Virus record (IMG/VR): IMGVR_UViG_3300020387_000002
Coordinates: 1-48,535 of that record
Origin: a virus
Taxonomy: Duplodnaviria > Caudoviricetes
Direction: 5' to 3' (one strand)
Length of the DNA stretch: 48,535 nucleotides
In this document: positions 5,987 to 42,877 of the stretch, piece after piece
How the letters are laid out: every line of letters begins with the position of its first letter
How positions within the stretch are numbered: the first letter of the stretch is position 1
Made by a program: the position numbers and the translations under genes
Notes under the pieces: model-generated
Databases searched by the model: none
What the model was told of the DNA's origin: nothing
What the model saw: the letters and a program-made list of their open reading frames with translations, nothing else

Positions 5987-8900
5987 ATGGCTGATATAGA
6001 GGACCCTTTTGAGGATGCGCCTATCCAGAATCCTTACGGGGACTCTGATGGACTATCCCAACTTCGCGCTGGTGTAGCTAGGCACCAGAGGAGGCTTGAC
6101 GCTCTTAATAGAGAGCAGGAACAGAGGAAGGAGCAGAAAGAGAGGGAGCAACGGGCTAGGGATGCGGAAATTGAGAGAATCCAAAATGAAAGGATTGCTA
6201 GGCAGAACAAGATTACCAGAGGCAGGGCCTCGGATGAGGGTCTTGACGATTACCTGCTAGAGGACAAAGACGGAAGGTTAAGGATGTCCCTCACTGATGA
6301 TCAGGTTGCTGATCACAGAAAGACCCTTAGAGAGATAGAAAAAGATAAAGCCAAAAGGGAAGCGGCTAAATCTAAAATCAAAGGCCTATCGGACCAGATA
6401 GCGGCAATTAGGAAAGATCCGGACAGGGCCCCGCTAACCCCAGCCAAAAGGAGGGCGGCTGAAGAGGATCTGGAGAAGGATCTAAACTACCTTGAGGGCC
6501 TCAGACAACGGGCCGCAGACGGCGAAGAAGGAGCGGCTGAATTTCTAGCGCAAAAGCAGCAGTCTATTGCAGAACAAAGAGCGGCCTTAGATGCTGACGA
6601 CGAGTCTATCTCTTCAATCGAAGAAATAAACCAACGCATCAAAAGGCAGGAAAGAATTGGGGAAGGATTCCCCGAAGACCTTGCAAGAACCCGAGACGGA
6701 ATCCTTGGATTGCGAACATGGGACGCTCCAACCACAGAACAGGAAGGGCCCGAGGAGGTCAGCAAGTTTATTGACGCTTACAATCGGGAAGTAGAGCGCA
6801 ATAACGAGAAAATCAAATCAGTCCAAGAGGACGAGAAAAAGGCCGCAGACTCTTACCATCAAAAAATCGAAGAGCTGGAGACAGGCTTCCTAGACTGGGT
6901 GGGCACTGGGGTTACTCCAGATCAGATTAAAGACGGAAGAGTAGTTCTTAGGCAGCAGTGGGCGGAAATTACAAAGGACTACCTGAGAGAGAGGTATGAA
7001 TACGACAAAGGGATTAAGGCTTCTCAGCAAAGAGGAGAGTCCTTGGATCTGCTTAGGCCCATAATTGGAGATGCGATAGAAGACTATGACGGCTTTGGCC
7101 GTGCGCGAGCCAAGGAGGCCGCTGAGGCTGCCGCCAAGGCAAGGAAGCAAATTGTTGCTTCCATGAGGGAGCAGCAAAAAGAGTTTAACAGGATAGGGTT
7201 TAAGGGCAAAAGGGCAATGGGCCCTTCATACGGTAAAGAGGTTAATGATGCTTACGATGAGTGGGTCAAGACTTTCGAGAAAGGGATAAAGGCAATACCT
7301 GACGACATCGAGTATGGTGTCAAGGGGTCTTGGGGAATTTCAGGAGACGAAGGGGTTCCGGGGGATGACTATGTCACAGGCAAAAAGCTGACCAACACCC
7401 CTGAAAACAAAAAGGAGTATCTGGCTCAAAAACTGGCCGAAATTCAGAACAGGATAAACGAGGGGGTTCAACAAAGGTTTGAAAGATCCGGGGACCTTTA
7501 CGGGGATCTTGTGTCTGCAATTTTTCAGTCATCCGGAAACAGTCCGGCTCTACTAAAGGCACTCGGCAAGCATGGATATGATGTAACTCCAGAGTTCGCG
7601 GAAGACGTTGAATTTTTGATGCCTTTGTATGTAAGGCCGAGTTCTGCTGACAATATCGGCAAAGCTCCATTTTGGGTGCAGCCTATGAATGTTGCTGCGG
7701 CTGGGGCGGATTTTTTGGGGGGCGTACTTAAATGGGGCTCGGTGGGGTTAAAGGCGGCAAAGCCCGGAAAGCAATACGGGACACAGCCCGGTCACCAGAA
7801 TAGGATAAACAGACTCATTGATAATCTAAGAGAGGCTGGATACACGGGAGAAGAAATAGGTGAGGCTTTTGACAACATACAACTGACGTTCAAAAAGTGG
7901 CCAAAGAAAGTTGGAGAGGAGCCCTCAAGGTTCAGAAGTGATGGGAGCATCATGCTCCATCCAGAGCTAAACATAAACAACAAGAAGGCCTACGCAGAAG
8001 CAGTTAGATCCGCCGAGGCACCGGAGTTCATTAAGAACCATTATTTATCTGACGAGACATACCAGAGGTTGTTGACGACATATTTGAGCGGCGTAGATCA
8101 TGCGGCCCAAGCGGCCTATAGCATTACTCCAGAAATATTCGGAGGAACGCCCACCCCTGCGGAGTTCAAAAGGAAGTTTTCAAGACCAGCATTAGCCACA
8201 AGAAAAGCAATAGATGATCGCAAAGAAGAGCTGCGCGAGCTTTCGGCTACAATAAACGAAAAAGAGTATAGGGGAGGAGACGCCTCAGCTTTAAGAAAAA
8301 GCCGGGAGGATCTTGAAACCGAGATAGAGGGTCTAGAGGAGGTTCATGCAAAGGAGCTAAGGGAGATACCCAGCTACAATGAACAGATGGCTGAGTATGT
8401 TGCCACATACTCAGATAAAATAGATGGATTTGGGGCGACAATAGGGCGGCCTGCTCGGATGCTTATGATGGGAGGCGGTAAGGCTTGGCAAACCCTTACT
8501 GGAATCGGAGCAGTTCTTGCAATACCCGGAGCGAAAGACCTTACAATAAATGCTCACCATGCGCTGGCTGAGCAAAGGGAAGGGGCAGAATATTTGGGGA
8601 CAGCGTTTGATCATCTTGGCCCCCTGAAATGGCTTTCTAAAGGCTCCGATATACTTCTTGAGGAGGGCCCTTCACTGTTGTTCTCGCTAATCCCGGGCGT
8701 GGGGGCCTCTGCCACAGCGACATCAAAGGTCATGGTCAAAGGGATCGAGAGATCCGTCAGCAGGCAGGTTACAAGAGGGGTTCTTAGCAAGGCGGCTGCA
8801 AAGAAGCAAAAAGACAAATTCCTTCAGGACGCGGCCAAAAAATGGGGTCTCCGGGGGTCTGCCGCTGGAGCTGGATTCCAGTCTGCGGGACTAAGCTGGT

Positions 8901-11900
8901 CTCATTATTACGAGGAAGCCAAATCCAAGAGGGAGGCAGAACTTGGAAGGGCTCTCACGGCTGAAGAAGAAGACGACTTGGCATCAAGCCAAGCGGTGGC
9001 TGGACGAGCGATGGTTACAGGCGTTCTTACCGCGACAGTCGTCAGGGCTTTTGGGTCAACGGGTGTCGAAAAGGTTTTCGCAAGAGGAAAAGTAAACGAA
9101 TGGACAGTTAGAGATTTCTGGAGATCCATTGGGGCAGAGGGGACAAAAAGAAAAGAGAAGTTCATATCTTCGTTCAAGGAGGTTGTGAAGGCATCAGCCT
9201 TTGAGGGCGCTGAGGAATTTACTGATCAGTTTCTTTCTGCCTTGGCATTTGATGATGCAAGTTTCTCAGAAATCATGGGCACGGCAGCGTATGCTGGTGC
9301 TGCTGGCTTAGTATTGGGCGGCTTTATGGGGGCCACCATGTCTGCCGGAAGAACCGGGATGACAGTCGAGAACTTCGCTGACCCCAAAACTGCTCGCGCA
9401 GCACTTGGTGATGTTTTTGGCAAAACAGAATACACCCAAGAGGAAGTTGAGGCCGGGCTGGAACTGGTAAACTACAACCCCGGCAAGGGGTCTAATGATG
9501 GCGGGGTCGCAGCCAGAAATTTGCAAGTTGCAATTGAGGCCCATAAGAATCTCAACAATAGAGAGGAATCGGCTTTTGGCAGCAGGAACTATTACAACCG
9601 ACTGGGCAATGAGGAGCTGGTTGCTGAGGCGCAGGCGGAAATTGACAGCGTTAATCAGGTTCGCGGCCTCATTAAAATTGCAAGCGGCAAGGTTAATGAC
9701 GATAGCGAGCTAACTGCTGCCGAGTTCAGGGCGGTAAACCAAGCGGCTAACGAGCAAGGAAACCCTGCTATTAGGGAGGTAAACGGGCAGCTCGTAATCA
9801 CAAAGGACGGGATTAAGGCGGTCCAGAGAATGGACCCTGATGCGGGGGAGTTTTTAATAGCCCTAAATGAGGAAGCCAGACTTAAACAGATACGAGAAAC
9901 CCCTCTTCCAGAGGCAGAGGAAACGGTTAAGGCAGAGGCAAGGGCTGAGGAGAAACCGGAGCCGACAGAAAAGGCAGAAGCCAAACCGGAAGCCAAGCCA
10001 GCAGAAACAGAACCTGAGGCAGCCAAGCCAGACGTATCCAAGATAAAAGGAGCGGCTGTTGAGGGCGGCAGGCAGGTTATTCGCAACTCGAAAGGGGAGC
10101 ATTATTCCAAACGCGCAAGCGCCGAGATACGGCTGAAAAAGCTGATTAAGGACGGCAAGCTGCCTTCTGAGGGGTTTAGTGTTGTCGAGGAAGAGGCAGG
10201 GAAGTGGATTATTGCAGAGGATGTAAAGGGCGAGGAGGCCGCTCCCTCCGGAGGGAAGAAGAAGTGGAGGGTCACAATCAATGTTGGAAAAGGGAAGACT
10301 AGAACAGTTGAGGTAGAAGCGGAAACTAAGGCGGAAGCTGAGGACGCGGCGATAGGAGAAATAAAAGCCCCCGAAACAATATTCGCGGTTGAAGAGCTTG
10401 GCAGAGACGCCCCAACACTCCAGACCGAGCCCAAGAAAACCAAAAAGGCTCCCCCCGCCAAAACCCTAAAGGAGAGCAGAGATGTAGCTTCCGCCTTACA
10501 GGGATCAGGGCTAGTAGAAAGGGTTATTACTGAGACGGAGGAAACTCCTGTCCCCAAAGGACGAGATTACGTCATAACCAAAGATGGAGATGTAATTCTC
10601 AGCTCTAAGGTAGACGAAATGTCTGACCAAAAGCAGAGAAGGGTAGCCGCCAAAATACTGGTCGAGCTGGCCACTTCAAAAGTGCTTACCGATGAAGAGG
10701 CTAAGGCCCTCTTTGGCTTTTTGCCAAAGAAGGCCCAAGAGCTGATTGCCAAGAGAGCCGAGAAGGTCAAAGGCGAAAAAGTTTCTGATGCTGACGCGCT
10801 CCGCTATTTCGTGGAAAACCAGCTTTTGGACCCACTGATGGTGGCCACCATGCGGCAGGTAGTAAAGCAGACGGGGAGAAGGAAATCGGACAGAGCAGCA
10901 GTTAAAAACGGGCCCCTTGGCCTATTCCTTAAATACCTCAGAAGATTCCTAGATCGGATCAAAACTATCATTGCCGATAATCCAGCTCTGAAAAAGGAGT
11001 TGCAATTTTATGAGCGCATGGCGATGGCGCTTATTACTGAGCAAACAAGCGATAGAGTTCTTGCCGATCTCGGCGTAGCCATTCCAGAAAGCCGCATCAC
11101 AGACCGCAAAGATGTGGTTCTTCCCCCAAATATTAGAAGGCTACGGGGAGGCCAATACGAAGTAACTCTCCCCGGGGGGCGAACGCAAATTTTTGCAACT
11201 CGCGCAGAGGCAAGAGAGAAAAACGCGCACAAATACGAAGACACGTTCCACGAAGCAGCCAAAACTGCCGAGGCCATGCAGGTCGTAAAGGGCCGCCTGT
11301 CAATTGAGGAACTAAACTCGCAGTTACGTATCCTCAAGGACCTTGTCGCAACAGTGTCAACTAGGACGGGTTATTCAAAAGAGACTATCTACTCTTTTAC
11401 AAACGTGCTAAAAGTTGGAGGCGAATTTACTTCTCTTGCAGATGCACTTGCAGAGGCTTCTCGCACAGGCAAAGCGGATAAGCAACTGGCCCTGCAAGAC
11501 GCAATCAGGTCCTATTTAGGAAAGCTCTCAAATATAAATGAAGACCTTAGCTCCGTTCTGGAAAACGCGACCTTCACGGAACGCGCTCGTAGGGCTTTGG
11601 CAGCCAGCAGGATGGTTACCTCCGTTACCGCCGATGTGGCAGATGGAAACCCCGCAGTCATCCCAACACTCCGAAGAGCTAGAGACAGATTCTTGGCTTT
11701 GGTCGGAAAAGGGACTTCTGAAAAGGGGCTACAAAAATTGCAACAGCTTGTATCTCGCAAAGAGCAGATAACTGAGCAAATAGCGGCTATTGCAACTGAA
11801 GACCTTGCACTTGGGTGGGAAGGGGGAGTTGATCCCAAGGCGGCCAAGCTCAAAAAAGAGCTGGCTGACGTAGACAAAAAGATTGAAAAGGTAACCAGAG

Positions 11901-14900
11901 ATCAAGACGCGAAATACGCAAAGGCAGACGTTAAGTATAGGAAACACCTGAAAAGAAAAATAGGTGCCACCAAACACAGGGTAAAGGGCCTAGCAGAAGT
12001 AGACCCGGCAGCATCTAGAGTGTATGTGGGAATTTCTGATACGGGAGATGTGACGACATTGCTGCATGAGTTTATTCATGTATTGCAACATGTTAAAGAT
12101 CCCGACTCCGGAAAAAGCCTCTTAGACACAACCATAGGGGTAAAAAACGCCGAGGCGATGGCCAAATGGGCAGAGGAGGTTAATCCCGCAACGCCTCTTG
12201 AAACAATGGCAGAAGGTCTTGAGGCGTTTTTGCAAGAAGGCAAATCCCCAAACCCAGAATTGCAGGGAGCCTTTTCGGAGTTAGCTCCAGCAATTTACGC
12301 CATCTACAAAGACGTAACAAAGACGGGAGGATACAGGCTCACTGAAGAGGCTAGAGCGGCGTTTGGGGAATTATTTGCAGATAACGAGGTTGTCGGGAAC
12401 TCCTTGGGGGCAAATGCGGTAAGAACAGCCCAACTGCACAAGGCGCTTCTTAATGGAGCGATTGCCGTGGATGAAAAGGACTTGGTTCTTGCGTTGCCAA
12501 ACGGAAGGCCTCAGGCCGGATTCAAGAAGCGCAAGGCTGCTGAAAAGCTGGTAGAAAGCCTATACAGGCCTCTCTATGGAGATTCAGCAAAAGTCATCGA
12601 GCATGAAGGGAAGTTCTACGCAGGAATAGACCTTGGATCTGAGTGGTCCGCTCTCAAGGAAAAACTATCATCGTCACTCCTGTTCCAGAAAAAAGCAGTC
12701 GTATCAAAGCCTAACGCAGGAAACGACAGGTTCAGGGTCGGCAGCGCGTTACCAACGGGTAAAAACGCCCCCAAGAGAAGGGATGTTAAGTCCAATATCT
12801 CTGGGGCCATGGTCAGTGAGGAGCTTCTTGCGAAGCACATGAAGGCGTTTAACTACGACCATCTACCCAAGAGCATTCTTAACGAGAAGAACCCTTACAG
12901 AAAAAGAGAGCTGGCGATTGAATGGATGGTGGAAAACCTCTTGGCAATCCACGATGCCCTGCCAGCCCGAGTCCGGGCGGAAGCAACGCGCTGGTATGAT
13001 GGGGCTAGCAAACTTGCAAACACATTTGCAAGAAGATACGGATACACAAAAGTCCAGACGGCTGGCGTCATCGCCGTGCTTTCGCCTCAGAACAATTGGT
13101 TTAAGAATGTCGATCAGGCTGAGAAGCTAATCGACATTTACACGAACCACAAAAACGAGGTCATTAGCTACGAGACCCATGGGGAATCCATGGAGCGCAT
13201 AATTGCCGGGGCTCAGGCGTCCCAGACCAAAAAACGGTCCCGAAAAGACGGGGAAACTCCAAGCCAAAGGGAGGTAAGGCTTGCCTATAACAGGAGGCAG
13301 GACGAAATGGTCCGCGAGGAGAGAAGAATGCAATTGGAGGCTCTTGAGGGGCTGACAATCAGGAAACTTAAAAAACTAGGCAAAAGCCATCAGGCGTGGG
13401 CAATACGCCTTCTCGCTGATCATCACTGGGGCAATGAATATAATGTTCGCAACCCCGATGGCGACATTATTGATGTCCAAAGGAAGAAGCCGACAGCAAA
13501 GCAGCTCAAACGAGGGGAAGAGGGTGACCCCTCAACCCATAGCTGGGGAAGCACTAGGGAGATCCTTAATGCTGTTGCAATTCTAGACAACGGAAGCCTT
13601 GAGAGCTTAAACAAGGCTTTGGGGACCTACCACAAGGTCAGAAACTTTTACAACAACATCGTTGCCCCCAATAGCCCAATGGGTGATGTGACGATGGACA
13701 CACATGCCATAGCAGCAGCCCATCTCATGCCATACGGAGGCAAGGCCCTCCCTGTGAAGCAAAACTTTGGGGAGGCCATTGCAAATTCAAATGAAGGAGT
13801 AAATGGCACATACCATTTGTATGTTGACGCATACAGGGAAGCGGCTCGCAGAAGGGGCCTGATGCCCCGCCAGATGCAGTCGATTGTCTGGGAGGGCATC
13901 CGTGTGATTCACCCCACAACCGAGAAGACTGGGGAGCGCGGCAAAAAACGTCTAGCTCTTACCAAAAATTCGTGGAAGAATAACGGCAATGCCAGAGCAA
14001 GACAAATCATCATCAACAGATCCGGACCCCTCTATCCTGACTGGTTTACCGGAAGAAGAGATAGAGGCCCTAAAGGAGTATCAAAAGGACTGGGCAAGGA
14101 TAGGAAGAAACCTGTCACTGGAGCAGGTCGCACTACTGGAACTGGGGTCACCTCAAGACGAGGACGAAAATCTAGCCCCACCTTCCAGCTCGCTCCCGGC
14201 CAGAAGAACGTCGGCACCCGAATCTTTGAGAAAGGCCCGTCGGAAGAGGCTAAAGGAGAAGGTATCAAAGGACTTGGCCTACAAGGCCAAGAGGCCTACG
14301 CTTTCCTCGAAAGCCTTTATAGAACAGATGAAGCGTTCAATGAGATCCTAAGCGCAGCCGCAAAAAGGGGTCTTACTAGCCTTAAAAGCAACGCTGGCGC
14401 TTATGGGGCCGAGCAGATCCTTGTTCGGGAGTGGGCGGAAGAAAACAATTTCATCAACGATAATGTGTCGTGGTGGCAGGCGCACAAGGAGTTTTACAAG
14501 AACGACCCCAAAGCCCCACAAGGAGGATACGAGCATAAGATTCTGTTAAGGGGAGGTTATGTAGAGAAAATCTACGCCCCAACAGTCCGAGAGGACTCCA
14601 TACTGGAGTATCTAAACAGCCTCATATGGCATAACTACCTTTTCCCTGAGACCTCTTATGAGCTTCTTGGGTTTATGAACTTTGAGGACAGGATTGTCCC
14701 ACACGTTCGTCAAAAACTAATAGTAGAAGATGAAAAGTGGGCGAAGGAGCATGATGAGCTGTCCAAAATAAACCCCGACTACAATCGGTTGCAAGACGAC
14801 GATAGCGGGGATGTTAGGAGGCAGGGATTATTGGTAAATGAAATGATTGAAAGGGGCCTTATCCCAATTCAAGAATTTCTATTTTACGATCCAGCGGAGG

Positions 14901-17900
14901 ACATCGTGGTTGGGGATCTCCACAAAAGAAACTTCTTTATTGAGAACGGGGAAGTAAAACCTGTTGACGCTATAATTGTTCACTATGACCGAAGCCCCAT
15001 AAGCGAGAGGAACAGGGTTCGGGATGTGGACTTGCATGAGTTCCTTGAACGGCAAAACGCTCCGAGCGATGTGATTAACCACCCAATCGTCAAGTCTCGG
15101 GAAGAGCATCTTGCTGATCAGGAGGACCGCCGGAAAAGAGAGGATACGAGCGATATACATCGCTTCATGGCTGCCAATATGATCATTACGCCGGGCGGCC
15201 ACATAGAGCTACCCGGTGATCTAATCAACACAGCAGACCTGAAAAAAGCAGGCATTGCTGGAAAGCGAAAAGCAGAGCCGCCCTTAATGCAAAAAGACCC
15301 CAGAAGGGTTGTAGACGACGAATGGCTAGGACTGGCCGAAGAGGCTGGATACCCGGAATACAAAGACGGGGAGCGCAAACCCACCACTACGGAAACATCA
15401 CAGGCTAGACAAAAGCTATCATTGCTTACCAAGAAACTGGCCGACTTGTCTGGGCTTCACTTGTCTCCAATGTTCCATGGAACCAAAAAGAGGTTCACGG
15501 TTTTCAACATTAGCTCCGCTCCGATAGTGCTTCAAGATGCTGAAGGCTATACAGACGAGGCCACGCCCATAAGCGATTGGGGTAATGGGATATACACAAC
15601 AAATACAAGGGACGATGCCACACTGAATTACGCCAAGAAGGGGGCGGATTGGGATATAAAAGTGCAAGACAGGGCCAAAGCTATCCTGAAAAACCCCACT
15701 AAGGAGCAACAGAAGGCCATAGAGGCGCAAAGTTCGTTGCCCAAGGAGCTTGTAGCTATGATGCTTGCGGACAAAGAGGCCTCAGAAAGCATCGAGGGCT
15801 CCTTTGTTAAGGACCTGTATGTCAAATTGGAAAACCCGGCAGAGTTTGGCCCAGACTCCATGGGGAATCATGTCCACTTTGAGGAGTGGAACGGAGAAAG
15901 AAGCCATCCTGTATTAGATGCTCTGGAGGTAATTAAAGAGAACATACAGGCAGAGGAAGGAGCCACCGTAGTTACAGACATGGAGAACATGCAAAATTTG
16001 CAAGAGCTTCTCCTTGACGGCCCAAGGTATGAGCAGGTCGAGAAAGCACTGAAGGTCCTTCCGCCACTTAAAGTGATGCGGGTTGACAGAATGGGTGGTT
16101 TTGAAAGCCTCGACAGCAACAGCCCTGAAATTGCAAGAAGGGTCTTTGAGGTCCTTGGCCATGACGGAATAATTGACCGGAACATTCTAAAGAAGTTCCC
16201 AATGAAGGGCGTGGATGAAAGCACCATACACGTTATCGCTTTCCGTCCTACGCAGGTAAAGTCGTCTGACACGGTTACTTATCACCCTGAGACAGGAAGA
16301 ATAGTCCCGCCTTCTGAAAGGTTCGACATGCAACATCCGGACATCTTGCTACAACAAGACCCGGAGGTAATCCGGCTTGCAAAGCCCGATGCTTGGAAAA
16401 GGAACCGTGTCTCAGAGGCGATTCGGGAGATAGAGCAGGTCGAAGGGTGGGATAGAAACCCGCTTCACCCTGCACAGATTGTGACTGACACGGGTGTTTC
16501 AATTGAGGTGTTTATATCCCCGTCTGACAACCTGCATTGGGCAAGTTTGATCAGCTTTGGCCAGAGAAGAAAAGGCAACGCTACAGCAGTTATAGAGAAG
16601 CTAAAGGAGATAGCAGATAAGCATAATGTCCTTATTGAAGGTTTTGCAAAGCCCTTTGATGTTAGCAAAAATCGCACAGGAACTGGCACAGAGGAACAGC
16701 TCTCATTGCCACAACTGCTCAAGTTCTACGAGAGCAGAGGTTTCACGGTGCGGTCAAATGGAGATATTGTTTACCATAAGGACCCGGCAGTAGTAGCTAG
16801 TTTCACTGGCTGGGGCCGGAATGCGGACCCCCAGAATGCAGCCGAGGTCATTGTCGAGCTAAAGAACGCCAGCGAGGGGCTAGACCTAAGCTCGTTTGAG
16901 ACGGGTCGCTTTGGAGAGTTTTTTGAAGAAGAGCATCCTGCCATGGATTGGCAAATCGCTATTCCGGAGGAGCTATTGGTAGAGGACTACAGTGTCCCTC
17001 ATATATTGGCTTTGTCTGATTACTTCCAAGCATTGGAAGCAGCCTTTTATGAATACATTGAGGAGGACAGCGTTGACCCCAGTTTTGAGGACTATATCGA
17101 GGAAAGAATAGGACTCCTAAGGGACCTACTGGACTTCCTTGAGGCAACGCCTTCTATCCGGCCTCCAACTTTCCAGCTCGGCCCAGAAGCCACGCCGCGC
17201 GGGGCCAATGATGCTGACGCGGATAAGCCGTCAGACATGACACCCCTTGATCAGATCCCGATCCCGGGGATGGATAAAAGGAGGGGTCTCAGGCTGCAAT
17301 CTTCCAACATGTATGGGAGGACAGCCCTTAAAACCTTGGCTAAGGAGCTTTTCCAGAATGGTTTGGACGCCGTTATGAAAAAGAAGGCCGCGATGGACGC
17401 TTCTTTGCCTCAGCGGTTTAAGGAGCAGGTTGTGCTGCCAGAGCTAAAAGAGGCCGGAATAGACCCAGAAGGAGAGCTTGGCAAAAAGACAATACAGTTT
17501 CACCTAGACAATATATCCACAAGGGCCCTAGCAGACCTTCCTAAGAACTTAGTATATCGGCCAAGCATCTATTTCAGGGGAGGGGGGGCCAGCCCCAACC
17601 CAGCCGTGCCCATGCGAAGAGAGGACGGAGAATACTATGAAGGCAAGGTTGCGTCTTTTGCCGACAATGGAATAGGCATGTCCCCGGAGCTGGTTCTCAA
17701 CACCTTTCTTGTCCCCTATGTTTCAGGGAAGAAGGTCGGAGAAGGAGGGGGATTTGGAATTGCAAAACTGGTGTTCTTGATGGGTCCAAACAATGTCTGG
17801 ATTACTACCGTCACAGAAAACGAAGAAGGCCAAAAGATAAGAACCCGAGTGGAAATTGGCCCCGGGGCATATGAAAGGTATGCGCTTCAAGATCCCGACG

Positions 17901-20900
17901 ACAAGGGGGTAAAGAAATCTTTCTCGCAAAGCGACCTTGTTCCCGGCGGTCGAATAGAGCTTGTTTCGCCGGGGGAGAATGGGACCCCGGGCATGAAGGT
18001 GTCCGTGGATCTTGTCCCTGAAGACACAGAGACGGGGACGGCTTATGTAATAGGGCTTCTTGATCCTAGCCTGAAAGAGGGCAAGGAGTGGGACAATGCT
18101 GCTTTAGCAGATCAATTCTTAGAATTGGCCGCGCAGCATATGCCAGATGTAACTGTTAATACAGATAGTGGGCATGGGGTGTCTCAGGTCTTTGTTAGAA
18201 GCGGAACGCAATCAGTCAGGCCCTTAAACATTATCAATACCGAGGAAATCAAGGACTTCTTTAGCGATTTTGACCTTGAGGGATTTGATGTTTTGATTGA
18301 GGCGTATAACGAAGAGAGCGCCGCAGCAAACCAAGAACAGCAGACGGGCCTATCTGGTAATCCCCTTCCGGAAAAAAGACCCATAACCGATGCGGCTGGA
18401 ATCGTTAGATACGATAATTATGGGTTCCCCCAAAGGGATGCGAGGGAGAATTTCAAAAAATCAAAAAGTTGGCGATTAGTCGAGGGAGGCGTCCTAGAGA
18501 CCGCAGAGGCGCGAATAGAACTCCTAGCTTTAGAAGGCGATAAGCTATCGGAGAAAAGCGCAGTAACTGCCTATATTCTCAATAGGGGCATATTGCAATT
18601 TAAGGAAGTAATAGCCATACCCGCATGGGGCAGTAAGGCCATGTTGCCCGTTAGCGGCATTGCGGTGAACATCCAGTCCAAGGTCAAGGCGGGGGAGACT
18701 GGATACCCTTTCACCTTGGACAGGAACAACATGTCGGAAGGAGTGGAGGAAAGGATCGGTGAGTTCCTGAAAAACCTCGGGGAAGAGCATCACTCAAAAA
18801 TGATTTCGACATGGAAGGCCAGAAGAGACGCTAGCGTTCCAATTAAGCGAGTTTTTGAAGACACGCCTGAAAGGAAAGCAGACGAATGGCACTTCGCTCA
18901 AGTTGCTGCTGACAAACCATACGAAGACAGGAAAGAGGGTGAGCGCAAAATTCCTGAGTCCTTTGCATTTTTAGACTTATCCGCCACCCAGCCAGAATCA
19001 CTGGTTCAGGAGTTTGTCGAAGACCCTGTAATACAGGACCTCGCGGAGACATATTACCAGATACAAGGAAGGGTGCTGCACTACCTTAAAGAAAAACACA
19101 GCAGCAACGACGACTTTGGAAGAGCGGGATTTACAGGTTTTGCAATTGGGACAAATGCATACGGCCTACACCTCGAAACACGGATGTTGGTGCCAGAAGA
19201 TCAAAGGGACCTTATTCAATTCAGCCCGTCAGCAATCTATCACGACCCCGTTGCAACATTCAACAAAGTGCTTGGAGACTTTTCTTACGATGACTTGCTG
19301 ATGCTGGCCGGGGATAACCCCGCAGATGTCAATCTTGTGAGATTGCAAAGATTTTTTGACGAGGTGGCATCAATCGCTCTGCACGAAGGAATGCACCAAA
19401 ATATTAAGTCAGAAGGAGAGGAGCTTGCAAGGGCTCTCACGTTTGACGCGGGAGGGCTCATCAGGGCTCTTGAAGGCTCTCTGGACATAAAAGTAATACT
19501 TGGCGAGCAAAATGAAGTCGCATTAAGGGAAAAAGCGGATAAGATATCAAAGCAACTAAAGCTATACCATGAAAGGTTTGGGGAAAATCTGGATGAAACA
19601 GAAGCGGAGGCATTCATTACTGGAGTCGGCTCTTCAGGCTACGGGATCAGAATTAAAAAACCGGAAGCAAATCGAAGCCGAGGTAATCGAGCTAGAAAGC
19701 CAGATGTCACGGCTGAAACAAAAGATGCTCTTTCTCAGGAGGAAAGAAGAAGAGGTTTAACTCCTCCCACAATGCAAAAGGCCCCCAAGGACGCTCAAGA
19801 GGGAGCGGAAAGGGCCAAAAGGAGGATGGACAAAAGGGGTAAAACCCTGCGGGAGAGGCTTTCGTTATTCAGAAAGAGAGACGCAAGAAATGCTGCTGGA
19901 GAAAAAGTGGTCAAAGGTGACCCCTCTAGAGCTAAAGTGGGAGACACCGCAGAGGTTAGGAACGCTTATGACGTTTCTCAGGAAATCTACGAAGAGACGT
20001 TTATCGCCCAAAACTTCCCGCAATGGAAGGTTGGGGCCTCCGCAGAAAGAAAGTCTCAGGGTGATGATGAAATTAGAAGAAAGGTTTTTGAGTCATCTGA
20101 GAAGCTGGGTCAGCCCGGGACCCCCGAGTTCCAGATAGCATCCATGCAAGTGCTGGCAGACGACTTCCAAAAAGCACTTACATCTGGAAATCAGGCGGAA
20201 ATCGACAATGTGATGGCATTTGCTCACGCCTTGCAAGAGTTGCGAGGTGAAATTGCAAGAACGATGACCTCGATGAGGGACCCGTTCCAAACCCCGGCGC
20301 AAAGAGCTGCTTACGCCCTTGGCATGGCTATGAACACCGTGCCCCCGGGTCAGATGCAAGCTCTAAGAAAGAAGCACGGGGCTAAAAAGTCTGGAGACAG
20401 TATTCCTGCGGCCAATAAGCCAGCATTTGATGCGGACCTGAAAAAGTTGCAACGCAACAGGCTGGAGCAGTCTAAGCGGGTCCTTAAACGTGACGGCATG
20501 TCCGTAGAGGAAATATTTAACTCCTCCAATGACGGGGTTGCGATTGGGACCACCACCGATCAGGCCGCTCTTGGAGAGCTTACCCCCAAATTCCGCAAGG
20601 TCGTGCAAATGGCTAGAGAGGGCGCAGACACGGAGGCTATTGAGGCCGCTACTGGAGTTTCCAAGATAGGTCAAAGAAAGGCCATGGAGAAGTTCAGAAC
20701 GGTTCTGGAGCCCAAAGTGCGGGAGCTGGTTAAGCGCGGATATAACGAGAACAACATGGGGTCTTTTGCAAGCGGCACCCCCTTGTCCGGAAAGGCGAAG
20801 CCCGGGACCGATCAGGATGTCAATAAGGTCCTAGACCGATCATTTAAGGCATCCGTAAAGGCTCTCAACCAAAAAGGATTTAATGTAAATAATCCAATAC

Positions 20901-23101
20901 ACGTTCAGGCCGCCTTCAGGGCCCTTGATAACATTGACATTGACTACGTTACGCGGACGTTCGGGTCTTGGTATGGGAACGTGTTCTCGGCAAAAACTGT
21001 TCTTGTGAACCTTATGTCTATCCCCTTCGCTGGATACAGGATGATTGGGGAGCAGGCGGCAGAGTCTCTTTTGAATAAGTTGGCAAAGCACCCGGAGGCG
21101 GCCAAGATGGGAGAGTTCAAGTATATCGCAAGGGGGATGAAAACCTATCTTGGCATGGCGATATACCAAGGGTTCCTAGCTTACGACACCGAGACAGCTT
21201 ATTTCAATTCCTTCGTAAAAGGCGGCGTTGAGGGAGGGGATTATAGGGGGGAAACCCACGAAGAGGTGCGTGGCTACCAAATGGGCCACTTGCTCGACTA
21301 TGTCGATCAGGCAATAGAAAAAATGTTTGGGAAACAGGGGGAAAGACCAGCCATGATCAGAAGAGCCTTGGGGGAAAAGGGCGCTAAAAGAAAGATCAGC
21401 TTAGGCGGTTTCGGAAGAAACATCCTTAGGTTCAACATGGGAGTGGACGAGTTTATGAGGTTCATTGTCGCAGGCTCCCATGTGGGTGGCATCGCCTATA
21501 GGGTGGGTACTGGAAAAGGCCTTGAGGGCGCTGAACTAGAGCGGTTCATCCACAGGGAGATGACCGTTCCGGGCTCATCCAGTTGGACGCTCGCGGCAGA
21601 AGAGGCCAATGTCTCTGTCTTCACCAAGGACCTCCCATCTGATCTTACAGGGGGACGGGCGTCTGTGGGAGATGCGGTTGCTTATGTAATTAACAAACTT
21701 GATCAGACAGTCAAAAACGCGGAGAAGAGCCTAAGGGCATCCAAGGAAGTCTCAAAGGTCACAGAATCCGGCCTAATAAGAATTAGCGAGGTTGCGTGGC
21801 TGGACTCCTTGCGGATCGCTCTCGGGATGACCCGCATTACAGTAATTCCATTTGCAAGGGTGTTGGCCAACCTTGTCCGAGAGGGGTATGCGAGAATACC
21901 CAACCCCCTCTCAGTAGGCTACCACTCATTTAAGCTCAGTCAGTATCTAGCCAAAAACCGAGGAAACCCAGACCCCAAGGCGGCAGAATCCATCAGAAAA
22001 TTATCCCAGCAGCTTCTTTCGACCGTTTTGGCAGCAGCAATCTTGGCGATGTTTGAAGGGGATGAAGATGACGAGGAGAAGCCAATTCTGATTACTGGCT
22101 CCATGCCCAAGTTTGGAAAGGGCGCTGCGGCAGAGAGGGAGGCGGCCATCAGGGCCGGGATGGGTCCGTTCAAAATTCGGATAAAAAAAGATGCGACATT
22201 GCTGTTTGGCGCTATCCCGGTAGGGGAGATGCTTACTCCGGAGGGAGAGGCGGGAGTCACCTTCGACTATGGGCGAATTGATCCGTTGGCCATAACTCTA
22301 GGGACCACAATAGACTGGGTGAAGACATTTAAGAGGCTTGGCAGAAAAGAGCGCAACATAGCTGAAGCCGGATGGGAACTATTTACGGACACTCTTTTTG
22401 GCCAGCTAACAGACAAAACTTCGCTGAGAGGGATGAATGACGCCTTCGGCATAGCTAGTGGCAAAATCTCTCCGGAGAAATGGTCCGCGAGGCAGTTTGC
22501 GACATTCCTAGTCCCCAACGTGTTCAGGCAGCCTATTAGGGATGGGAACCTTACATACGATGCTAGGCTTTCTCTTGGAGATGCTAATCCTGTCTGGAAA
22601 CTTCTTCTCTACGAGATGTATCCCAGCATGGACAGCAAGGTGCTTGGCATAGACCTGCCTAGAAACAAATTTGCCCCCGGATCGCAAAGGGACGCATATG
22701 GAGAACTCCTCAAGAGGCCCCGGGGGTTTGGTTCATGGATTGCAAGGCAGCAGCCCTACACTCCCAAGTTTTTCGACAAAATGATCCACAAGGGGAGGAA
22801 GTTGGAGCCCTATAGGGAGGACCTAACAATGCCTACCCGTGTCAGCAATTCATATGTCTACACTGACGAGGCAACAGGGCTAAAGCAAAAGCACAAGATG
22901 ACCCCGTTGCAATATAAGATTTTGCAACAGAACTACCAAAGAGTCTGGCAGGAAGAAAGCCTATCTGTTAGAAATGCGGAAGACATCGCCCCCGCCCGGA
23001 GAAGGGCCAGCGACAAGGCGAGAGCCATGTCTTACGAGAACATCGAGTTTAAGCTAGAAGCACGAAGGACATTTAACAAGAAACTGAAGGACAAAAGATG
23101 A
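5987..23101 (+). CDS. Giant (5,704 aa) polyvalent internal virion/ejection protein
   Basis: Uninterrupted 17.1-kb ORF directly upstream of the portal gene. N-terminal coiled coils, a G/A-rich hydrophobic region with an EGAEE motif, several recognisable enzyme domains and a C-terminal LPD38/internal-virion-protein-like region. Confidence 0.9.
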   Translation: MADIEDPFEDAPIQNPYGDSDGLSQLRAGVARHQRRLDALNREQEQRKEQKEREQRARDAEIERIQNERIARQNKITRGRASDEGLDDYLLEDKDGRLRMSLTDDQVADHRKTLREIEKDKAKREAAKSKIKGLSDQIAAIRKDPDRAPLTPAKRRAAEEDLEKDLNYLEGLRQRAADGEEGAAEFLAQKQQSIAEQRAALDADDESISSIEEINQRIKRQERIGEGFPEDLARTRDGILGLRTWDAPTTEQEGPEEVSKFIDAYNREVERNNEKIKSVQEDEKKAADSYHQKIEELETGFLDWVGTGVTPDQIKDGRVVLRQQWAEITKDYLRERYEYDKGIKASQQRGESLDLLRPIIGDAIEDYDGFGRARAKEAAEAAAKARKQIVASMREQQKEFNRIGFKGKRAMGPSYGKEVNDAYDEWVKTFEKGIKAIPDDIEYGVKGSWGISGDEGVPGDDYVTGKKLTNTPENKKEYLAQKLAEIQNRINEGVQQRFERSGDLYGDLVSAIFQSSGNSPALLKALGKHGYDVTPEFAEDVEFLMPLYVRPSSADNIGKAPFWVQPMNVAAAGADFLGGVLKWGSVGLKAAKPGKQYGTQPGHQNRINRLIDNLREAGYTGEEIGEAFDNIQLTFKKWPKKVGEEPSRFRSDGSIMLHPELNINNKKAYAEAVRSAEAPEFIKNHYLSDETYQRLLTTYLSGVDHAAQAAYSITPEIFGGTPTPAEFKRKFSRPALATRKAIDDRKEELRELSATINEKEYRGGDASALRKSREDLETEIEGLEEVHAKELREIPSYNEQMAEYVATYSDKIDGFGATIGRPARMLMMGGGKAWQTLTGIGAVLAIPGAKDLTINAHHALAEQREGAEYLGTAFDHLGPLKWLSKGSDILLEEGPSLLFSLIPGVGASATATSKVMVKGIERSVSRQVTRGVLSKAAAKKQKDKFLQDAAKKWGLRGSAAGAGFQSAGLSWSHYYEEAKSKREAELGRALTAEEEDDLASSQAVAGRAMVTGVLTATVVRAFGSTGVEKVFARGKVNEWTVRDFWRSIGAEGTKRKEKFISSFKEVVKASAFEGAEEFTDQFLSALAFDDASFSEIMGTAAYAGAAGLVLGGFMGATMSAGRTGMTVENFADPKTARAALGDVFGKTEYTQEEVEAGLELVNYNPGKGSNDGGVAARNLQVAIEAHKNLNNREESAFGSRNYYNRLGNEELVAEAQAEIDSVNQVRGLIKIASGKVNDDSELTAAEFRAVNQAANEQGNPAIREVNGQLVITKDGIKAVQRMDPDAGEFLIALNEEARLKQIRETPLPEAEETVKAEARAEEKPEPTEKAEAKPEAKPAETEPEAAKPDVSKIKGAAVEGGRQVIRNSKGEHYSKRASAEIRLKKLIKDGKLPSEGFSVVEEEAGKWIIAEDVKGEEAAPSGGKKKWRVTINVGKGKTRTVEVEAETKAEAEDAAIGEIKAPETIFAVEELGRDAPTLQTEPKKTKKAPPAKTLKESRDVASALQGSGLVERVITETEETPVPKGRDYVITKDGDVILSSKVDEMSDQKQRRVAAKILVELATSKVLTDEEAKALFGFLPKKAQELIAKRAEKVKGEKVSDADALRYFVENQLLDPLMVATMRQVVKQTGRRKSDRAAVKNGPLGLFLKYLRRFLDRIKTIIADNPALKKELQFYERMAMALITEQTSDRVLADLGVAIPESRITDRKDVVLPPNIRRLRGGQYEVTLPGGRTQIFATRAEAREKNAHKYEDTFHEAAKTAEAMQVVKGRLSIEELNSQLRILKDLVATVSTRTGYSKETIYSFTNVLKVGGEFTSLADALAEASRTGKADKQLALQDAIRSYLGKLSNINEDLSSVLENATFTERARRALAASRMVTSVTADVADGNPAVIPTLRRARDRFLALVGKGTSEKGLQKLQQLVSRKEQITEQIAAIATEDLALGWEGGVDPKAAKLKKELADVDKKIEKVTRDQDAKYAKADVKYRKHLKRKIGATKHRVKGLAEVDPAASRVYVGISDTGDVTTLLHEFIHVLQHVKDPDSGKSLLDTTIGVKNAEAMAKWAEEVNPATPLETMAEGLEAFLQEGKSPNPELQGAFSELAPAIYAIYKDVTKTGGYRLTEEARAAFGELFADNEVVGNSLGANAVRTAQLHKALLNGAIAVDEKDLVLALPNGRPQAGFKKRKAAEKLVESLYRPLYGDSAKVIEHEGKFYAGIDLGSEWSALKEKLSSSLLFQKKAVVSKPNAGNDRFRVGSALPTGKNAPKRRDVKSNISGAMVSEELLAKHMKAFNYDHLPKSILNEKNPYRKRELAIEWMVENLLAIHDALPARVRAEATRWYDGASKLANTFARRYGYTKVQTAGVIAVLSPQNNWFKNVDQAEKLIDIYTNHKNEVISYETHGESMERIIAGAQASQTKKRSRKDGETPSQREVRLAYNRRQDEMVREERRMQLEALEGLTIRKLKKLGKSHQAWAIRLLADHHWGNEYNVRNPDGDIIDVQRKKPTAKQLKRGEEGDPSTHSWGSTREILNAVAILDNGSLESLNKALGTYHKVRNFYNNIVAPNSPMGDVTMDTHAIAAAHLMPYGGKALPVKQNFGEAIANSNEGVNGTYHLYVDAYREAARRRGLMPRQMQSIVWEGIRVIHPTTEKTGERGKKRLALTKNSWKNNGNARARQIIINRSGPLYPDWFTGRRDRGPKGVSKGLGKDRKKPVTGAGRTTGTGVTSRRGRKSSPTFQLAPGQKNVGTRIFEKGPSEEAKGEGIKGLGLQGQEAYAFLESLYRTDEAFNEILSAAAKRGLTSLKSNAGAYGAEQILVREWAEENNFINDNVSWWQAHKEFYKNDPKAPQGGYEHKILLRGGYVEKIYAPTVREDSILEYLNSLIWHNYLFPETSYELLGFMNFEDRIVPHVRQKLIVEDEKWAKEHDELSKINPDYNRLQDDDSGDVRRQGLLVNEMIERGLIPIQEFLFYDPAEDIVVGDLHKRNFFIENGEVKPVDAIIVHYDRSPISERNRVRDVDLHEFLERQNAPSDVINHPIVKSREEHLADQEDRRKREDTSDIHRFMAANMIITPGGHIELPGDLINTADLKKAGIAGKRKAEPPLMQKDPRRVVDDEWLGLAEEAGYPEYKDGERKPTTTETSQARQKLSLLTKKLADLSGLHLSPMFHGTKKRFTVFNISSAPIVLQDAEGYTDEATPISDWGNGIYTTNTRDDATLNYAKKGADWDIKVQDRAKAILKNPTKEQQKAIEAQSSLPKELVAMMLADKEASESIEGSFVKDLYVKLENPAEFGPDSMGNHVHFEEWNGERSHPVLDALEVIKENIQAEEGATVVTDMENMQNLQELLLDGPRYEQVEKALKVLPPLKVMRVDRMGGFESLDSNSPEIARRVFEVLGHDGIIDRNILKKFPMKGVDESTIHVIAFRPTQVKSSDTVTYHPETGRIVPPSERFDMQHPDILLQQDPEVIRLAKPDAWKRNRVSEAIREIEQVEGWDRNPLHPAQIVTDTGVSIEVFISPSDNLHWASLISFGQRRKGNATAVIEKLKEIADKHNVLIEGFAKPFDVSKNRTGTGTEEQLSLPQLLKFYESRGFTVRSNGDIVYHKDPAVVASFTGWGRNADPQNAAEVIVELKNASEGLDLSSFETGRFGEFFEEEHPAMDWQIAIPEELLVEDYSVPHILALSDYFQALEAAFYEYIEEDSVDPSFEDYIEERIGLLRDLLDFLEATPSIRPPTFQLGPEATPRGANDADADKPSDMTPLDQIPIPGMDKRRGLRLQSSNMYGRTALKTLAKELFQNGLDAVMKKKAAMDASLPQRFKEQVVLPELKEAGIDPEGELGKKTIQFHLDNISTRALADLPKNLVYRPSIYFRGGGASPNPAVPMRREDGEYYEGKVASFADNGIGMSPELVLNTFLVPYVSGKKVGEGGGFGIAKLVFLMGPNNVWITTVTENEEGQKIRTRVEIGPGAYERYALQDPDDKGVKKSFSQSDLVPGGRIELVSPGENGTPGMKVSVDLVPEDTETGTAYVIGLLDPSLKEGKEWDNAALADQFLELAAQHMPDVTVNTDSGHGVSQVFVRSGTQSVRPLNIINTEEIKDFFSDFDLEGFDVLIEAYNEESAAANQEQQTGLSGNPLPEKRPITDAAGIVRYDNYGFPQRDARENFKKSKSWRLVEGGVLETAEARIELLALEGDKLSEKSAVTAYILNRGILQFKEVIAIPAWGSKAMLPVSGIAVNIQSKVKAGETGYPFTLDRNNMSEGVEERIGEFLKNLGEEHHSKMISTWKARRDASVPIKRVFEDTPERKADEWHFAQVAADKPYEDRKEGERKIPESFAFLDLSATQPESLVQEFVEDPVIQDLAETYYQIQGRVLHYLKEKHSSNDDFGRAGFTGFAIGTNAYGLHLETRMLVPEDQRDLIQFSPSAIYHDPVATFNKVLGDFSYDDLLMLAGDNPADVNLVRLQRFFDEVASIALHEGMHQNIKSEGEELARALTFDAGGLIRALEGSLDIKVILGEQNEVALREKADKISKQLKLYHERFGENLDETEAEAFITGVGSSGYGIRIKKPEANRSRGNRARKPDVTAETKDALSQEERRRGLTPPTMQKAPKDAQEGAERAKRRMDKRGKTLRERLSLFRKRDARNAAGEKVVKGDPSRAKVGDTAEVRNAYDVSQEIYEETFIAQNFPQWKVGASAERKSQGDDEIRRKVFESSEKLGQPGTPEFQIASMQVLADDFQKALTSGNQAEIDNVMAFAHALQELRGEIARTMTSMRDPFQTPAQRAAYALGMAMNTVPPGQMQALRKKHGAKKSGDSIPAANKPAFDADLKKLQRNRLEQSKRVLKRDGMSVEEIFNSSNDGVAIGTTTDQAALGELTPKFRKVVQMAREGADTEAIEAATGVSKIGQRKAMEKFRTVLEPKVRELVKRGYNENNMGSFASGTPLSGKAKPGTDQDVNKVLDRSFKASVKALNQKGFNVNNPIHVQAAFRALDNIDIDYVTRTFGSWYGNVFSAKTVLVNLMSIPFAGYRMIGEQAAESLLNKLAKHPEAAKMGEFKYIARGMKTYLGMAIYQGFLAYDTETAYFNSFVKGGVEGGDYRGETHEEVRGYQMGHLLDYVDQAIEKMFGKQGERPAMIRRALGEKGAKRKISLGGFGRNILRFNMGVDEFMRFIVAGSHVGGIAYRVGTGKGLEGAELERFIHREMTVPGSSSWTLAAEEANVSVFTKDLPSDLTGGRASVGDAVAYVINKLDQTVKNAEKSLRASKEVSKVTESGLIRISEVAWLDSLRIALGMTRITVIPFARVLANLVREGYARIPNPLSVGYHSFKLSQYLAKNRGNPDPKAAESIRKLSQQLLSTVLAAAILAMFEGDEDDEEKPILITGSMPKFGKGAAAEREAAIRAGMGPFKIRIKKDATLLFGAIPVGEMLTPEGEAGVTFDYGRIDPLAITLGTTIDWVKTFKRLGRKERNIAEAGWELFTDTLFGQLTDKTSLRGMNDAFGIASGKISPEKWSARQFATFLVPNVFRQPIRDGNLTYDARLSLGDANPVWKLLLYEMYPSMDSKVLGIDLPRNKFAPGSQRDAYGELLKRPRGFGSWIARQQPYTPKFFDKMIHKGRKLEPYREDLTMPTRVSNSYVYTDEATGLKQKHKMTPLQYKILQQNYQRVWQEESLSVRNAEDIAPARRRASDKARAMSYENIEFKLEARRTFNKKLKDKR
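11990..12390 (+). other. Zincin metallopeptidase domain (MPTase-PolyVal-like) in the giant protein
   Basis: DVTTLLHEFIHVLQ (HExxH at 12065-12079) followed by ETMAEGLEAFLQEGKSPNPELQGAF. Confidence 0.8.
12900..13920 (+). other. Helical HhH DNA-glycosylase-like domain (DUF7178-like) in the giant protein
   Basis: RWYDGA...AGVIAVLSPQNNWFKNV...KVRNFYNNI...DVTMDTHA...AYREAARRRGLMPRQMQSIVW. Confidence 0.65.
14400..14990 (+). other. Ser/Thr kinase-like domain (Kinase-PolyVal-like) in the giant protein
   Basis: GGYEHKI...VEKIY, HNYLFPETSYELLGF, VRQKLI, catalytic loop GDLHKRN (14912-14932) and downstream VDA. Confidence 0.8.
15440..16340 (+). other. ADP-ribosyltransferase domain (ART-PolyVal-like) in the giant protein
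   Basis: MFHGT..FTVF, GNGIYTT...A..YA, LYVKLENP, GHDGII, VIAFRPTQVKS, PPSERFD. Confidence 0.75.
16400..16760 (+). other. GNAT acetyltransferase domain in the giant protein
   Basis: Acetyl-CoA motif QRRKGNATAVIEKLKEIADKHNV and C-terminal LLKFYESRGF. Confidence 0.75.
17290..19450 (+). other. GHKL (Hsp90/MORC-type) ATPase followed by a second HExxH motif in the giant protein
   Basis: N-box KELFQNGLDA (17342), G1 DNGIGMS (17663), G2 GGGFGIA, later GT motif; IALHEGMHQ with HExxH at 19382-19396. Confidence 0.8.
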
Positions 23102-25350: not shown

Positions 25351-25634
25351 GCATTGACAAGGAAAAGCAAGAGTATGACCGGGCCCAGAAGGTGGGCGAA
25401 AGAGTCGAGAGAATGTGCAGGGAAGAGGGGTGGAGTGACCACTTTATCCCTATGATCCAGAAAAGGAGGGATGAGGCGCAGTCTATCGTAAACGACCCGG
25501 ATAGTGATCAGCTAACCACCCAGCTAAACAGAGGGGTCATAAAGGTCTGCGACGAGGTCTTGGGATATAGGGAATACAGCGAGGCCCGAGCCGGGAAGAT
25601 TATGAGGTCCGCTGTTGCCGCCAAGATGCGCTAG
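25347..25634 (+). CDS. Small helical protein downstream of portal
   Basis: ATGA overlap with portal; EEGWSDHF...RG pattern common in post-portal small proteins. Confidence 0.7.
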   Translation: MSIDKEKQEYDRAQKVGERVERMCREEGWSDHFIPMIQKRRDEAQSIVNDPDSDQLTTQLNRGVIKVCDEVLGYREYSEARAGKIMRSAVAAKMR

Positions 25635-27324: not shown

Positions 27325-27377
27325 GATTGCAACTTTAATGTTGCAAAAGATCAAATAAAGCTCAAAATCCTTAACCA

Positions 27378-42556: not shown

Positions 42557-42877
42557 GTGAACATCCCCAAAGGCGTAACAATTGCAGGAGTTTTCGTTAA
42601 AATCATTAGGGAGGACCTTAGAGATGAGGACCACCACCCTAAGGGGTATTTTGGCTATTACTCCCATGAGCGCAGGGTCATAGCGATTGACAAGGGGCTA
42701 ACCCCTGCTGCGGCCCGGGATACAATTCGGCACGAAATGATCCACGCCGCTTTGGCCATGTCTGGTCTGGATCATCTTGAGCATTTTGAGGAGGAGGCAG
42801 TCGTGCGGTGCATGGAGGAAATCTTTTTCCCGGCCTACGAAAGGTTCTTGCGGAACCTAAACAGGAAAAAGACTTAA
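42557..42877 (+). CDS. Small zincin-like metallopeptidase
   Basis: GYFG...IAID..L...RDTIRHEMIHAAL...EEEAVV. Confidence 0.8.
   Translation: MNIPKGVTIAGVFVKIIREDLRDEDHHPKGYFGYYSHERRVIAIDKGLTPAAARDTIRHEMIHAALAMSGLDHLEHFEEEAVVRCMEEIFFPAYERFLRNLNRKKT

Follow-up and report, generated by a model that had tools for sequence, protein, structure and literature searches.

Polyvalent proteins were defined by Iyer, Burroughs, Anand, de Souza and Aravind in 2017, who also proposed (section 8) that metallopeptidase (MPTase) domains embedded in them act by autoproteolysis and release the other domains, in analogy to RNA-virus polyproteins (PMC5512222). Neither a cleavage site nor a linker motif is named in its main text ("linker" does not occur and "cleavage site" stands only in a reference title), and the FTP alignments belonging to the paper may show the mark. 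Here we describe a giant protein of this type, encoded on a 48.5-kb virus record (Caudoviricetes; IMG/VR IMGVR_UViG_3300020387_000002; the whole stretch of 48,535 nt was analysed and is called the window below), in which a short peptide mark recurs at the joints between unrelated domains. Like the proteins of the 2017 set, it is a giant multi-enzyme protein in a virion gene cluster, with Kinase-PolyVal, ART-PolyVal and GNAT-like modules and an embedded HExxH domain with a downstream Glu (PMC5512222). It differs from that set in that its zincin has no Pfam model and in that its family shows the sites, a scaffold without modules and module exchange between strains. Self-processing of polyvalent proteins by embedded zincins had been proposed in 2017 without sites; new here are concrete sites and module exchange at them.

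Other large packaged or ejected proteins resemble the window protein, by domain type, in carrying a zincin-like domain: N4 vRNAP, in whose structure an HExxH was noted (PMC13434306), phi24B gp47, which was found in virions and whose metallopeptidase was proposed to attack peptidoglycan (bioRxiv 10.64898/2026.04.10.717836), and the P1 DarA-operon protein, which is processed, the section on it giving no site (PMC5512222). Unlike what we propose for the window, N4 vRNAP is packaged whole and the gp47 peptidase is assigned to peptidoglycan. Two proteins of cultured epsilon15-like podophages, grouped here as internal virion protein D homologues, belong to the same zincin family as the window protein, linked through P0005, and carry the mark just before the zincin, namely Bbp10 of Bordetella phage BPP-1, which is listed as such a homologue (PMC4819975), and gp16 of Octadecabacter phage OANV1 (for its placement see PMC9239159). 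Cultured Caulobacter and Cobetia phages also have members of this family. Further copies of the mark lie upstream (Bbp10 aa 768, 589 and 261; gp16 aa 1701, 1169 and 747), and the modules of both proteins lie upstream of the zincin, whereas those of the window lie downstream. Both are annotated as lysins or hypothetical proteins, and processing data for either were not found in the literature searched.

RNA-virus polyproteins are cut at Gln by 3C and 3C-like proteases, which are chymotrypsin-fold cysteine proteases. The window resembles these systems in combining one protease with repeated hydrophobic-Gln marks between unrelated domains, whereas its candidate protease is a zinc protease and its modules are exchangeable cargo. 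In the literature searched, which left most subscription journals uncovered, no paper named such a junction motif or gave a site or a test of zincin self-processing. Overall, we consider it rather probable (about 60%) that the marks are self-cleavage sites of the zincin in the protein's own scaffold (core zincin) and double as recombination points. We infer the cutting indirectly from the invariant catalytic residues, the lineage-specific spelling of the mark, its turnover within one linker and the recurrence of the same core beside the zincin across the family.

Whole-module gain and loss at the junction marks

The giant protein consists of a fixed scaffold, made up of an N-terminal part with the HExxH zincin and a 1,107-aa C-terminal part, around a variable module array. 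Relatives were taken from scans of viral and metagenome contigs and comprised the giants G001 (5,900 aa), G002 (4,982 aa), G003 (4,910 aa) and G005 (4,328 aa), the partial relatives L038, L050, L051 and L053, and the fragments L011 and L013, while the near-duplicates L045, L046, L054 and L055 were left uncounted. Wherever their sequences cover the scaffold, the relatives have it in common; their differences lie in the array that separates the core zincin from the conserved C-terminal part.

Comparison of L051 with L053 revealed four blocks at 97–99% identity and three whole-module differences, and all six inner block ends lay no more than 8 aa from a mark in both proteins, although by chance 7% of array positions are found within 8 aa of a mark (conservative p value 3.5e-4). 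Each of the three extra modules is bounded by an exact repeat (11, 13 and 9 nt), which fits recombination by microhomology. G002 is without the ART-GNAT-acidic block found in the window and G001 and is rejoined at the mark, P0007 (3,278 aa) has the scaffold with no cargo and a single mark, and a module common to L050 and L051 is flanked by each host protein's own spelling. The first-pass annotation had named the peptides as possible junctions for domain shuffling, which is directly seen in the relatives (L051 vs L053; G001 vs G002): whole modules are gained and lost at the mark, and such whole-module exchange at a short repeat is one feature of a polymorphic-toxin-like recombination cassette array. 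Two tandem modules of G003 (L024:11525-12976) have near-identical starts and ends, one of them being an ART-PolyVal above the cut-off, which suggests that a module was recently duplicated at the mark and had its middle replaced.

The eight peptides reported in the first-pass annotation (10412, 12677, 14177, 15281, 16343, 16766, 17165 and 19766) are all present and in frame in one 5,704-aa open reading frame (ORF), and its claim of a linker conserved at protein level and placed at domain joints held for six of them (12677, 14177, 15281, 16343, 17165 and 19766; Table 1). Linker placement rests on homology breaks and composition, and each accepted mark has a homologous mark in relatives according to the alignments. 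The site at 16766 was rejected: the basic-x-Pro ending that follows is common to all nine aligned GNAT domains, and four of seven family rows, judged by eye, have a separate Gln mark a few residues past the GNAT end. The site at 10412 is doubtful as a conserved mark, its hydrophobic residue being gone in G001 and G002, though G001 has an extra module inserted there. G001, G003 and G005 all carry extra sequence around this region, so it may be a second insertion point. The extra modules upstream of the zincin near 10412 (L023:5555-6040 in G001, L024 aa ~1500-1700 in G003 and L025 aa ~1380-1900 in G005) appear by eye to be GNAT-like, HExxH-like and kinase-like.

Table 1 Features of the giant protein and its surroundings in the window.
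Feature	Position	Strand	Remarks
Giant polyvalent (putative ejection) protein	5987..23101	+	one ORF, 5,704 aa, 634 kDa
Doubtful site, Pro/Lys-rich linker upstream of zincin	10412..10432	+	rank 1 with relatives matrix; hydrophobic residue lost in G001, G002
Core zincin-like domain, HExxH at 12065	11948..12391	+	best candidate reader of the mark
Junction mark 1 (zincin block / DUF7178)	12677..12697	+	rank 1 of 5,704 with distant-family matrix; homologues in G001, G002, G003 and empty-array P0007
Module 1, DUF7178, 500 aa	12689..14188	+	Pfam E 3e-26; at other array positions in L038, L050, L053
Junction mark 2, after basic disordered stretch	14177..14197	+	homologous marks in G001, G002, G003
Module 2, Kinase-PolyVal, 368 aa	14189..15292	+	Pfam E 4e-15
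Junction mark 3	15281..15301	+	left edge of the block missing from G002
Module 3, ART-PolyVal-like, 354 aa	15293..16354	+	Pfam E 8e-6, below cut-off; G003 module with same end passes cut-off
Junction mark 4, ART end	16343..16363	+	rank 2 of 5,704; Gln or Ser at the column in 6/7 aligned ART ends
Module 4, GNAT-like + acidic domain, 274 aa	16355..17176	+	probably one unit; travel together
Rejected site, conserved GNAT-domain end	16766..16786	+	rank 1087; 9/9 GNAT ends alike
Junction mark 5	17165..17185	+	in the alignment, 7 aa before the G001/G002 position
Module 5, GHKL-like ATPase + second HExxH (19382), 867 aa	17177..19777	+	HATPase_c E 0.015
Junction mark 6 (array / conserved C-terminal part)	19766..19786	+	mark within one column in 10 aligned proteins; weakest in L013
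Conserved C-terminal scaffold	19778..23101	+	1,107 aa; no Pfam family; 33–69% identical in relatives
SU10-type portal (context)	23098..25350	+	Pfam E 8.5e-14
Small stand-alone zincin by terminase	42557..42877	+	weaker candidate

Constraint on the peptide and strength of the motif

The exchanges might have left the mark as a recombination footprint only, with modules entering by microhomology and duplicating a short stretch that the protein tolerates. All three L051/L053 indels cross over within an exact repeat of 9, 11 or 13 nt, codon identity among copies exceeds chance in L038, L050 and L053, and Iyer et al. raised cassette recombination for Verrucomicrobium kinase loci (PMC5512222). In the window, G001 and G002, however, codons are at chance while the residues are kept, which agrees with the first-pass statement that the DNA of the copies is diverged. 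Among same-residue pairs, 15/36 codons were identical in the window (14.4 expected), 9/36 in G001 (10.6 expected) and 5/14 in G002 (4.3 expected), giving 29/86 when pooled (29.3 expected), and the constraint in this subgroup thus acts on the peptide. The repeat is not conserved as DNA in these three proteins, and a modest excess was found only in L038, L050 and L053. Mark 5 of the window has moved within its linker relative to G001 and G002, and at their position the residues of the window have decayed; the linker has thus retained a single mark, as expected if selection keeps one mark per linker. Together with the persistence of the mark in an empty array and across the distant family, this makes a mere footprint quite improbable, and we take the repeated peptide to be a genuine junction mark under selection, carried by a polyvalent protein built as a cassette array.

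Around a fixed Gln, the mark is spelled differently from lineage to lineage, with the exception that Ser often replaces the Gln in G003. Two residues before it, Thr or Leu is found in the window, mostly Ser in G001, Gln or Arg in L038, mostly Arg in L050 and mostly Asn in L053, and three residues before it Pro is favoured in the window, G001 and G002, and Ile or Val in the others. The spelling follows the host protein, with a within-minus-between similarity of 9.1 BLOSUM units (permutation P 1e-4; 32 sites from six lineages), a test that is partly circular because its seeds were chosen by likeness within proteins. It left out G003, G005 and L051, and four sites that the script had placed inside modules were removed beforehand. 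At the last joint, defined by position with two residues' play, the best match was the own lineage in four of five testable lineages, while that of the window was G002; strict column anchoring of this joint was one residue off register in several lineages and gave no usable result.

As to the motif itself, the strict pattern P-T-[FML]-Q-x-x-P occurs four times in the giant protein against a mean of 0.003 in 1,000 shuffles and the looser hydrophobic-Gln-x-x-Pro six times against 1.33 (P = 0.003), both patterns having been fitted post hoc. When the window array was searched without bias for its most self-similar 6-mer, the motif was missed (best score 20.8 vs a null of 20.1 ± 1.1 from 12 shuffles), the best de novo word being Arg-rich and not above shuffles. 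The window alone is therefore weaker evidence than the first-pass annotation implied. Across nine proteins, the junction word made up three or four of the top four de novo matches in six, two of four in G003 and none in the window and G005, and the de novo score exceeded the maximum of 12 shuffles in four.

A matrix built from relatives only ranked the sites among approximately 5,700 positions as follows: 10412 first, 12677 44th, 14177 eighth, 15281 18th, 16343 ninth, 16766 1087th, 17165 sixth and 19766 fifth. Three of its six array matches at a score of at least 6 bits were not sites of the first-pass annotation, and all three lie inside the GHKL module. One candidate, 17288 (aa 3771), which ranked second with this matrix, was discarded, as it aligns with the start of the GHKL fold and G001 and G002 are without Gln there. 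Leave-one-lineage-out matrices showed an excess at P ≤ 0.05 in five of eight proteins. The 27 other ORFs of the window gave four matrix matches in 8,118 aa, and a 14.8-bit match in the ORF at 27378 proved to be a Gln-rich low-complexity stretch. A second matrix, from 117 distant members of the zincin family, placed 12677 first and 16343 second of 5,704 positions, while the Pro-type sites ranked far lower (17165 815th and 19766 361st).

A chance likeness picked after the fact would suit the failure of unbiased discovery in the window alone and the loss of two of the eight sites. The agreement of independent matrices argues against it, and it is largely refuted by the break ends of L051 and L053 and the enrichment in the distant family, so that we regard it as very improbable.

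The core zincin as candidate reader of the marks

All relatives that cover the region have the core zincin, and its His, Glu, His and downstream Glu are invariant in 61/61 aligned zincin rows. An AF2 model of the 148-aa domain (pLDDT 84, pTM 0.75; an earlier model was poor, with pLDDT 61) predicts two strands, an HExxH helix and a Glu helix, so that the HExxH would stand on a helix and the conserved Glu on a later one, as in zincin-like MPTases. A three-stranded sheet is also expected of such domains, of which two strands appear in the model. No Pfam peptidase family, MPTase-PolyVal included, matched the window domain or 23 alignment members, and a PDB sequence search with the core zincin gave no significant match. 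The zincin profile matched 3,943 clusters (50% identity) at E ≤ 0.001, and the family figures given here are drawn from the best 150 of these. The HExxH was intact in 151/160 proteins; the others comprised five with HExxxH spacing, three partial domain calls and one without the Glu. A hydrophobic-Gln pair 20–62 aa before the HExxH was found in 76/138 distant relatives (29% expected; 30/127 in a control interval), and at the site fitted outside the window's clade, 87% carry Gln and 60% carry Leu two residues before it. Extra copies of the mark (8 bits) are enriched 1.4–2.7x upstream of the zincin, the module side in the distant family, compared to 0.5–0.9x downstream, the structural side. Spellings follow zincin subclades on a 20-row tree, and kinship alone would give the same. 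A 2,539-aa profile match, P0008, with 17 stretches matching one part of the zincin profile, is probably a repeat protein and was excluded from the analysis.

The window holds three HExxH carriers, namely the core zincin, the GHKL module and the small zincin, and the marks might be cut by a protease other than the core zincin (the small zincin at 42557, which the first-pass annotation had also put forward, the GHKL-module HExxH or a host protease). The small zincin was found in two of five records (G001 and G004), the three misses being incomplete records, and it is a weaker candidate because the copy in G001, a protein set with another spelling of the mark, is 99% identical, compared to 44–46% for the core zincin. 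Six relatives retain marks although no GHKL-module HExxH was detected in them, and family-wide the mark tracks the core zincin. We thus consider another protease distinctly unlikely and the core zincin the best candidate reader of the mark, judged on the sequences compared.

Alternatively, the mark may be read as a peptide and remain uncut, serving as a docking or pacing signal that folds modules on the scaffold for packaging or resets unfolding at ejection of a whole protein. All of the protein-level evidence suits binding equally well, and N4 vRNAP has an HExxH domain and a solved full-length structure (PMC13434306; PMC5512222). A pure binding domain, however, would not need the invariant catalytic Glu and metal ligands (61/61) or the HExxH kept in nearly all of the 160 proteins.

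A near-fixed Gln next to a hydrophobic residue in a flexible linker is typical of protease sites. It also speaks against an uncut mark, an explanation that we judge unlikely on balance.

Several observations weigh against self-cleavage by the core zincin. Its fold is not confirmed by a structural match (two Foldseek searches gave none at E ≤ 0.001). Most of the family has a copy directly before the zincin, which is missing from the window's subgroup, and no zincin column credibly covaried with the motif position across 117 family members; the top covariation z-scores (6.2 and 5.1) were rejected after cross-tables gave scattered rare residues only. The motif is short and weak, was missed by unbiased discovery in the window and in G005, and with a matrix from other lineages shows no excess in G001 and G003, and likewise none in G005. 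Codon identity above chance in L038, L050 and L053 (94/150, 60.7 expected) means that DNA exchange explains part of the likeness there. Moreover, N4 vRNAP, ArdC and TraC1 are packaged or transferred uncut in spite of their zincin-like domains (PMC5512222; PMC13434306), and the protease site of ArdC is dispensable for conjugation, its tested function (PMC7213743).

If the core zincin does process the marks, the following course is predicted. The giant protein is likely packed into the head and then ejected, after which its HExxH zincin would likely cut at each mark, either after the Gln or before the hydrophobic residue, both bonds being possible. Five cargo units of 56, 42, 40, 31 and 96 kDa would be freed (DUF7178, kinase, ART-like, GNAT-like and GHKL-like), leaving scaffold halves of 246 and 123 kDa. 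Cutting seems more likely to follow ejection than to precede packaging, since cargo already released would no longer be tied to the scaffold. Recombination at the mark DNA would renew the module set, and with the 9–13 nt encoding the mark acting as microhomology, a module that enters or leaves would keep one mark per joint. Under self-cleavage at recombining marks, the two roles would reinforce each other.

Cargo, gene context and wider meaning

Unrelated activities (DUF7178, kinase, ART-like, GNAT-like, GHKL-like and zincin) are joined in the one polypeptide. The first-pass domain labels were partly borne out: the kinase is a Kinase-PolyVal above the Pfam cut-off, while ART-PolyVal falls below it (27.1 vs 31.2 bits), HATPase_c is weak (E 0.015) and the C-terminal "LPD" label found no Pfam match in that region. 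DUF7178 passes the Pfam cut-off. The GNAT label rests on an Atlas lead and the alignment of GNAT ends, and the Atlas gave no usable match for the acidic domain. The two had been listed as separate units and are probably one, both being present in G001 and both missing from G002. Word-seeded protein searches returned the giant protein itself and, in another search, three distant relatives, with nothing for GNAT. Module 5 is present in G001, G002 and L013 and was not detected in G003, G005, L038, L050, L051 and L053; it fuses a GHKL-like ATPase with a second HExxH as one cargo unit for which no family was named. Among the cargo of the relatives are DUF7178 at varying positions, ART-PolyVal and additional HExxH domains, besides many domains without a name, and the arrays of L038, L050, L051 and L053 include several zincin-like modules, in some of which the HExxH is broken. 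The zincin region is flanked by short repeats of a small domain type that are basic and beta-rich (10100-10370, aa 1372-1460; ~11150-11230; ~12510-12600), and the one preceding mark 1 is retained in G001, G002, G003, G005, L038 and P0007, even with an empty array.

The end of the giant ORF overlaps the beginning of a podophage portal gene, after which capsid, adaptor and terminase genes follow. The protein thus has the features of polyvalent proteins, namely several unrelated domains, family-specific domain versions (Kinase-PolyVal above the cut-off; ART-PolyVal under it in the window and above it in one G003 module) and a location among the virion genes of a terminase-portal phage. Its packaging and ejection are likely, judged from gene position, family precedent and the listing of Bbp10 as internal virion protein D. 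Identity to G001 is 99% for the small zincin and 91% for the portal, while for the giant protein it is only 41–56%, so the giant gene appears to diverge or be exchanged much faster than the remaining genome. A search of genome contigs found no prophage relative, and the portal had no match among cultured phages. Two ORFs on the opposite strand (25631-27465, 330 and 280 aa) stand in the middle of the virion gene cluster and have no Pfam or PHROG match.

The locus family supplies concrete sites, predicted product sizes, natural gain and loss variants, an empty scaffold as a control and cultured phages with the same mark, and the idea is testable at once because these materials are provided. More tentatively, and at somewhat less than even odds, the 3,943 zincin clusters may represent a widespread delivery chassis in which one five-residue word is both protease site and recombination point, its spelling drifting with the zincin, and an injected giant is cut into tailored effectors. 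If true, self-cleavage at exchangeable junctions would explain how a small phage injects a changing enzyme set from one gene and would offer a source of many site-specific zinc proteases with sites readable from sequence. Such arrays would then be a protein-level counterpart of the integron, with enzymes plugged in or dropped at a word.

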